Shown here: positions 19,337 to 19,712 of the stretch, piece by piece
Numbering within the stretch: position 1 is the stretch's first letter
Layout of the letters: the number at the start of each line of letters is the position of its first letter
Assembly: GCF_003334335.1 (NCBI RefSeq)
Contig: NZ_QOWQ01000053.1
Direction: 5' to 3' (one strand)
Length of the DNA: 20,311 nucleotides
Source: Escherichia coli
GTDB taxonomy: Bacteria > Pseudomonadota > Gammaproteobacteria > Enterobacterales > Enterobacteriaceae
Made by a program: the position numbers and the translations under genes
The notes under the pieces: model-generated
Seen by the model: only the letters and a program-made list of their open reading frames with translations
Database searches by the model: none
What the model was told of the DNA's origin: nothing

Positions 19337-19439
19337 GTGGTATACCCTATAAAATTATCTGTATACAAATAAAACAGTTCAACATCGGATATATAAAGAA
19401 AATCTGATGTCTCGCCGCTCTCATGAGCTTACTCCTGAA

Positions 19440-19478
19440 GAAATTCCGAATTTTAATATGAAGTTTTTCGGAATTTCC
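19440..19478. repeat. Perfect 11-bp inverted repeat with a 17-bp AT-rich spacer, about 100 bp upstream of the adhesin start
   Basis: GAAATTCCGAA (19440-19450), spacer TTTTAATATGAAGTTTT, TTCGGAATTTC (19468-19478). Confidence 0.7.
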
Positions 19479-19712
19479 TTACTATAACGTCGGTGATATC
19501 ACGTCCGCGAAGGGGTATCCGCATTACGACTGGCCTGCCACTTATGCTGTCTCTTTATTCATCAACAATTTGTATACGGTTACATCTTTAATTGTGAAGT
19601 TAGTCACAAAAAGAAGAAAGTCAAATAATCAAATTGTGCTTAACTGTTTACATCAGCACAATCTGATAACCATTGAAGGACGCACTAAATTATTTTCAGC
19701 AATCCCTCAGCC

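Follow-up and report, generated by a model that had tools for sequence, protein, structure and literature searches.

An inverted repeat in the leader of prophage eib adhesin genes overlaps a conserved RcsAB/RcsB-type box and may act as an operator

We analyzed a 20,311-nucleotide stretch of Escherichia coli DNA (the window), in which a chromosomal segment running from yehL to yehS, with btsSR at 14322-16738, meets the end of a lambdoid prophage. The junction lies beside btsS (16740-17490), includes a DinI-like gene (17238-17486, plus strand) and is presumably the yehV/mlrA integration site used by Stx1-type phages; the RefSeq copy (L001) shows a truncated 'hypothetical protein' fragment there. 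On its minus strand, the prophage carries a 357-aa trimeric autotransporter gene of the Eib family (18263-19336) with a signal peptide and a YadA-type anchor. The first-pass annotation had called this product an adhesin, and the label holds, with a YadA-type C-terminus whose last 166 aa are 60% identical to EibA. Because only this C-terminal part is shared with EibA, and the closest relatives in viral contigs are 62-75% identical, the protein appears from its sequence to be a distinct passenger-domain variant of the Eib/Cla/Yal group. A terminator-like hairpin followed by TTTTT (18213-18229, minus strand) lies just 3′ of the gene, followed downstream by an orf-156A homologue (17701-18174, minus strand) and, past it, by an orf-60 homologue and the DinI-like gene. 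A tail-fibre-assembly-like gene on this strand, upstream of the adhesin gene, ends at 20132.

Eib proteins confer immunoglobulin binding, serum resistance and chain-like adhesion in LEE-negative Shiga-toxin-producing E. coli. Their expression is low in K-12, is activated by IbrAB, and is higher in static culture and at 37 °C, and its control is poorly understood.

On the coding side of the adhesin gene's upstream region, an inverted-repeat search and an independent scan both recovered a perfect 11-bp inverted repeat, GAAATTCCGAA (19440-19450) / TTCGGAATTTC (19467-19477). The repeat had been reported by the first-pass annotation, whose spacer of 17 bp and end at 19478 were each off by one: the spacer (19451-19466) has 16 nt, TTTTAATATGAAGTTT, of which 14 are A or T, and the repeat ends at 19477. 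Read in the eib sense (minus strand), the gene-distal 5′ arm is GAAATTCCGAA (19467-19477) and the gene-proximal 3′ arm is TTCGGAATTTC (19440-19450), and together they span 104-141 nt 5′ of the ATG at 19336, which agrees with the earlier estimate of about 100-140 bp. Three of the 11 perfect pairs are G-C, and in gene-sense RNA the stem reaches 13 pairs by way of one G.U pair.

The repeat is real and non-random. When we counted perfect inverted repeats of at least 11 bp with spacers of 3-30 nt in dinucleotide shuffles, they occurred at a mean of 0.012 per shuffle of the 795-nt intergenic region (3000 shuffles; one or more in 0.9%) and at a mean of 0.15 per shuffle of the whole window (one or more in 10.7%), which bears out the earlier remark that such a repeat is unlikely by chance in so short a region. 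A search for further copies of the arms found none beyond chance in the window. Apart from it, the window has a single perfect 11-bp inverted repeat (6522-6532 / 6556-6566), which overlaps the OrzO-P antitoxin RNA (6484-6559, plus strand; Rfam RF02083, 101 bits).

The repeat is already known, having been annotated in 2000 upstream of prophage eib genes, which encode immunoglobulin-binding adhesins. In the GenBank record of prophage P-EibA from E. coli ECOR-9 (AF151091; Sandt & Hill, Infect Immun 2000), the identical 38 nt are annotated as a 'stem_loop' (3777-3814) with no assigned function, and in the corresponding locus of our collection (L002) the stem_loop (4104-4141) lies at the same distance, 104-141 nt, from the eibA start (4000). 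The 224-nt upstream region is 98.7% identical between the window and AF151091, with the 38-nt repeat 100% identical, and it is also present in induced ECOR phages such as PhiR5_2, with 100% identity over 224 nt. The neighbors are shared as well (a tail-fibre-assembly-like ORF upstream, orf-156 and orf-60 downstream), and the terminator-like hairpin at 18213-18229 falls approximately where the record places a second stem_loop, just after eibA. The two loci differ in the adhesin passenger domain (357 versus 392 aa, alignable only over the C-terminal 166 aa) and in that the window's prophage adjoins btsSR.

Of the complete E. coli genomes searched (5426), 27 carry the element, at 1-5 copies each and always on the chromosome, and every copy that we inspected lies 5′ of an eib-type gene. 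Extended to 54 nt, it is found at 59 places in total, confined to the 27 genomes that carry eib leaders of the window's own class (class A, below). A generic repeated element of the REP or MITE kind was rejected on this restricted distribution and on the lack of extra copies in the window. Rfam covariance models gave no match at the repeat, and only chance-level ones elsewhere in the intergenic region. A wider contig scan for homologues returned distant adhesins (Neisseria, Moraxella, Sutterella, Edwardsiella) with no leader, and searches of viral contigs with short DNA patterns were overwhelmed by random matches.

Viral contigs and E. coli genomes supplied leaders upstream of eib-like genes, which we aligned with MAFFT. 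The leaders fall into eight sequence classes (A-H; the window is class A) that are about 70% identical over roughly 170 nt, with inter-class homology starting about 20 nt upstream of the repeat. Read in the direction of the gene, the leaders share a TAnnnT hexamer followed by a 14-bp 5′ box, and then an A/T-rich stretch that includes another −10-like hexamer. Next come an inner arm, which varies, and a 3′ box (GGAATATCCT.A) that is degenerate in classes A and B; a second hairpin, the TTTGTATACA block and the Shine-Dalgarno sequence complete the series. The repeat corresponds to positions 5-14 of the 5′ box, plus one flanking base, paired with the inner arm; in the alignment, the proximal arm of class A matches this inner arm and not the conserved 3′ box. 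Classes C and E-H do not conserve a second arm at this position. A difference in box spacing of one helical turn (11 bp) between classes was considered and rejected, as the alignment contains no such indel.

The best conserved block across the eight classes is the 14-bp box, which overlaps the gene-distal arm. It reads TAAGGAAATTCCGA in the window (19468-19481, minus strand) and TACGATAATTCCTA, TAAGAAAAATCCTA, TAAGATAAATCCTA, TAAGACAAATCCTA, TAAGATAATTCCTG, TAAGATATTTCCTA and TAAGATAATTCCTA in classes B to H, respectively, and is homologous to the TAAGA-N4-TCCTA of other leader classes. Across classes A-H, T1, G4, T10, C11 and C12 are invariant, A3, A5 and A14 are nearly so, and the central positions 6 and 9 are free. 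This pattern fits the RcsAB box consensus, TaAGaatatTCctA (PMC4325325, PMC3950696), and the RcsB homodimer box, TN(G/A)GAN4TC(T/C)NA (PMC7913699). The window's box carries the RcsAB conserved positions T1, A3, G4, T10, C11 and A14. The strict RcsB motif has no match in the window because the box has G in place of A at position 5, a change reported to weaken binding in gel shifts (PMC7913699). Classes C, D, E, G and H have the strict motif at their 5′ box; in the 13 leaders scanned, these are the only strict matches per 190-nt leader and always lie 142-145 nt from the ATG. The window's box does fit the lower-affinity variant TN(G/A)GAN4(A/C)CTNA, as TCGGAATTTCCTTA on the plus strand (19468-19481), with about 0.06 matches expected per shuffled leader. 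In the 13 leaders, the one other place where this weaker variant matches is the 3′ box; its match to the box of the window is on the antisense strand.

The rcsA promoter of E. coli K-12 has a box, TAAGGATTATCCGAAAAA, that shares 15 of 18 positions with the window's box taken together with its AAAA flank (TAAGGAAATTCCGAAAAA), the mismatches being confined to the N4. The K-12 box lies 264 nt before the rcsA ATG (1705-1722 of locus L177), the same position, −264, as listed for the Salmonella rcsA box (PMC7913699). The rcsA-type pattern TAAGGNNNNTCCGA occurs once in the window, versus 0.019 expected per shuffled window. In addition, the half-site wwTTCykA has been attributed to RcsB (PMC3950696), and AATTCCGA, which fits it, is present in both arms of the repeat: in the gene-distal arm, and, in inverted orientation, in the gene-proximal arm, whose plus strand reads GAAATTCCGAA and belongs to a partial box, TGAAGAAATTCCGA (19436-19449). 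Compared to the RcsAB/RcsB boxes of the rcsA promoter and of flhDC (+4 to +18), the leader box is likewise a 14-bp pseudo-palindrome with the same conserved positions; it differs in the window by its G at position 5, and its second, inverted half-site, at a 27-bp distance between arm centers, is without a described counterpart.

Two candidate −10 hexamers place the box relative to transcription. The first, TATAGT (19481-19486, minus strand), lies directly 5′ of the box, has the form TAnnnT in all classes and is assigned by consensus only; the second, CATATT in the window's spacer (19460-19455, sense), reads CATATT, TATATT or TAAAAT among the classes, gives the best mean match and is the more highly conserved of the two. 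Both have A2 and T6 invariant in every class, and neither is accompanied by a good −35 element. The sole consensus promoter match in the region (19382-19354) was rejected, being not conserved and leaving a leader of 12 nt. The literature searched contained no mapped eib promoter or transcription start. Judged from the sequence, use of the TATAGT hexamer would put the start inside the box and make the repeat a 5′-terminal RNA hairpin, and use of the spacer hexamer would have the arms flank the −10 and the start site, with the distal arm left untranscribed. Under either candidate, the box overlaps the core promoter, so that the putative eib box, like the flhDC box, would sit on or just after it. 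RcsB sites in such a position are associated with repression, as at flhDC and at 'roadblock' sites (PMC7913699).

The same nucleotides could instead act in the RNA. In this alternative, transcription starting at the TATAGT-type hexamer (19486-19481) would yield a leader of roughly 140 nt that opens with an 11-13 bp hairpin at its extreme 5′ end, which would protect the mRNA from 5′-end-dependent decay or take part in alternative leader folds. The 5′ hairpin of ompA is a 5′-terminal stabilizing stem-loop of a long enterobacterial leader. With the candidate start position, the eib structure would share with ompA-type stem-loops its stability, its place at the head of a leader some 140 nt long and the kind of gene that follows, one for an outer-membrane protein; it differs from them in its large 16-nt loop and its absence from some homologues. 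The sense hairpin is predicted at −13.8 kcal/mol (z −2.7 for a 61-nt segment and about −4 for a 49-nt segment), the depositors of AF151091 had annotated it as a stem-loop, and in each class the complete leaders are predicted to be more stably folded than their shuffles (z −2.6 to −6.4).

The comparison of classes also bears on the RNA stem-loop. Pairing of the repeat is kept in classes A and D (z about −4.2 and −4.9 versus shuffles) and weakly in B. In class D, these alignment columns form a 12-bp stem from another sequence (ATAAATCCTAAA/TTTGGGATTTAT), and four of its pairs differ from those of class A on both sides (G-C/A-U, A-U/U-A, U-A/A-U and G-C/U.G). Over 15 sequences, 76% of cells pair, compared to 27-48% in slid controls, with double changes at 5 of the 11 pairs, and the three imperfections in classes A, B and D are all G.U pairs on the sense strand. 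These features favor RNA, and the compensatory changes between A and D fit an RNA stem at least as well as an operator.

Other observations count against the RNA stem-loop. RNAalifold reported no consensus helix at the repeat in the leader alignment, the core C-G pairs are broken in 6-7 of the 15 sequences, and the antisense strand folds nearly as well (−13.1 kcal/mol). The hairpin is absent in classes E and F and in the class C leader of L009 (z from −0.3 to +0.75), and in class G and the class C leader of L011 the box pairs with a different partner, so that the box is kept while its pairing partner changes, unlike what a pure structure would show. In strain JNEC-KY208, eibG has a class E leader that lacks the repeat, yet this gene is expressed and worked from a plasmid with 168 bp of upstream sequence (bioRxiv 10.64898/2025.12.25.695649). 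Moreover, with the spacer hexamer serving as the −10, the 5′ arm would stay outside the transcript. On balance, we regard an RNA stem-loop as the chief rival of a DNA operator, possible though less likely than not.

Since the box is conserved in all classes and the pairing is lost in several, including the eibG leader, the sequence comparison indicates that the box is the constant feature and the repeat an accessory of some classes only. In another alternative, the repeat by itself would do nothing, and the perfect match of class A would have arisen by local inverted duplication or by template-switching correction of a quasi-palindrome. The arms would be complementary simply because RcsB-type boxes are pseudo-palindromic: a TC(Y)NA half-site necessarily complements a TN(R)GA half-site, which accounts for 4-5 of the 11 pairs, all others are A/T, and several classes have lost the pairing in genes that show no sign of defect. 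Yet a repeat of this length appears in less than 1% of shuffles of the intergenic region, the best copy is perfect over 54 nt in 17 of the 27 genomes, variation among the class A copies (n = 12) is confined within the element to two spacer positions (19460 and 19463) and the innermost arm base (19467), and class D keeps its 12-bp stem in the same columns with another sequence. We regard a repeat without function as improbable, but as deserving more weight than the two remaining alternatives.

Of these, the first is a terminator or insulator that would shield the eib moron from read-through out of the tail-fibre genes of the late operon. The site lies between the tail-fibre-assembly-like gene and eib on the same strand, and in class D the hairpin is followed by UUUUU. 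However, a terminator scan of the minus strand over 19200-20311 was empty, the stem is A/U-rich with a 16-nt loop, the class A tail reads UUCAGGAG, and the conserved module extends no more than about 20 nt beyond the box on its upstream side; we give this function almost no credence. Somewhat less remote, but still very improbable, is an operator for some other protein; examples would be IbrB, a ParB-like activator, and nucleoid proteins that bind the A/T-rich spacer. Palindromes are typical of ParB-type sites. IbrA and IbrB are the only activators reported for eib genes, which speaks for such an operator and against one for an RcsB-type regulator. Nonetheless, this assignment has no basis in the sequence, ibrAB is absent from the window, and the box fits a different, well-defined consensus. 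A crossover site for a Hin/Gin-type invertase and a LexA box (CTGT-N8-ACAG) were both dismissed, judged from the sequence, on wrong spacing (16 and 11 nt) and on the absence of a nearby invertase gene.

The neighboring orf-156A homologue (157 aa from the ATG at 18174) is 94% identical to ORF-156A and belongs to a family that is restricted to E. coli and annotated there only as 'hypothetical protein'. It had been called a LuxR-type protein, and at the level of the predicted fold the label is apt. Sequence searches gave no match to Pfam, GerE and Response_reg included, even at E ≤ 10, and no significant match to PDB sequences. An AlphaFold model of the family (19 homologues; pLDDT 90.9) has a receiver-like domain and a four-helix HTH, a FixJ/NarL response-regulator-like fold, and its best PDB matches by Foldseek are RcsB (6zj2_A, DNA-bound; E 3e-4, probability 1.0), EvgA and FixJ. 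The profile alignment to E. coli RcsB is weak (E 0.016), the recognition helices superpose, and the family's invariant Lys130 aligns with RcsB Lys180, a base-reading residue (PMC7913699). By inspection, the receiver-like N-domain is missing the acidic pair after strand 1 (ATRN) and keeps Asp52. Because orf-156A follows the eib-type gene in every locus whose downstream side is visible, the modeled protein may be an unrecognized prophage regulator. Compared to the auxiliary regulators of RcsB (RcsA, BglJ, MatA/EcpR and GadE), Orf-156 is similarly small, has a FixJ-type HTH and is encoded beside a candidate target, but sequence comparison detects no homology (hhalign E about 0.02).

Two readings came from the first-pass annotation: a binding site for a regulator, perhaps the adjacent protein, and an RNA structure in the 5′ leader. 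Both are possible, and the regulator side gains from the conserved RcsB-type box and from the RcsB-like predicted fold of the neighbor. The reading that we favor, tentatively and with a little less than even confidence, makes the repeat a DNA operator; an RcsB-type (FixJ/NarL) regulator would use it, perhaps together with the adjacent Orf-156. The repeat would be a class-specific form of a conserved control module that heads the eib leader and acts at the DNA level. Its gene-distal arm would lie inside the 14-bp RcsAB/RcsB-type box, its other arm would supply an inverted copy of the half-site AATTCCGA, and the two would bracket the conserved −10-like hexamer. We infer that a FixJ/NarL-family regulator occupies the arms and sets the rate at which eib transcription initiates; host RcsB is a candidate, either by itself or with RcsA, and prophage Orf-156 might be a partner resembling RcsA or BglJ. 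Repression would be the more likely sign, because the sites overlap the candidate core promoter. Besides the mismatch of the window's box to the strict RcsB motif, the operator has against it that this motif carries little information, about 0.06 matches being expected per shuffled leader. A two-site operator would not be family-wide, since classes C and E-H do not conserve the second arm.

A stronger version of the operator, in which the box is a genuine RcsB-family site and Orf-156 is a prophage-encoded, RcsA/BglJ-like partner of RcsB, strikes us as doubtful, and an interaction between Orf-156 and RcsB would be purely a matter of inference. The literature searched contained no link between Rcs and eib. 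If this stronger version is true, lambdoid prophages would have wired the Eib adhesin moron into the host's Rcs phosphorelay, which senses envelope stress and surfaces, and the inverted repeat would be a two-site operator that clamps the promoter. Such wiring could explain why Eib levels depend on temperature and differ between static and shaken cultures, and it would set Eib expression in inverse relation to capsule. There is nothing new in the repeat itself; the link to Rcs is the only potentially new element, and it is drawn entirely from resemblance in sequence and fold. An RcsAB-type box in every leader class, together with a neighbor of predicted RcsB fold, nevertheless offers a concrete and cheaply testable hypothesis of eib regulation.

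The remainder of the leader contains further conserved elements. A second, imperfect hairpin, CATCAGAT...ATCCGATG (19383-19409, minus strand), has an A.C mismatch that is repaired in two other leaders (L015 and L172). Its loop, TTTCTTTAT, is conserved, and its stem is kept with other sequences in class C (GTGTCAG/CTGACAC) and class F (TCAGATT/AATCTGA). The TTTGTATACA block, with the 8-bp palindrome TGTATACA (19360-19369, minus strand), lies about 25-35 nt before the start codon in all classes except F. When leaders L009, L011, L016, L019, L021, L170 and L173 were compared with the window (19337-19437), the 3′ box (…AUAUCCUG / …UACCCUUAUGAAA) was predicted to pair with the Shine-Dalgarno sequence (CAGGAUAU / UUUCAUAGGGUA) in classes C, D, E and H, between which the two segments covary; the unpaired probability of the Shine-Dalgarno sequence is about 0.1 in these classes, versus 0.35-0.5 in shuffles. 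This pairing might control translation, for example as a thermosensor. As it is not predicted for class A, sequestration of the Shine-Dalgarno sequence cannot explain the window's copy and was rejected for it. A leader peptide was likewise rejected. The 25-codon upstream ORF (19423-19346, minus strand) has an AGGAG Shine-Dalgarno sequence, ends 11 nt before the eib start and is of equal length in class C, but, judged by its sequence, it is probably not coding, because classes B, D and E either have a truncated form or lack it; conservation here is at the nucleotide level and not codon-like.

Among the 12 class A copies, 19337-19620 is nearly invariant, and the sequence farther upstream varies 5-20 times more. 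The intergenic region 5′ of the leader (19500-20131) is unannotated in RefSeq, while PhiR5_2 has two called ORFs of 49 aa there, and the region may encode a divergent small RNA or peptide. It contains a plus-strand promoter-like site (19601-19629), two plus-strand terminator-like hairpins (19978-20004 and 20107-20130) and a small hydrophobic ORF (19732-19806; MIVLFALFLCSHSVAYKKAPLSHV). A 9-bp inverted repeat is also present (19883-19909), as is a perfect 17-nt direct repeat, TACGAAAATTCTGTATT, with copies at 19713 and 19889.
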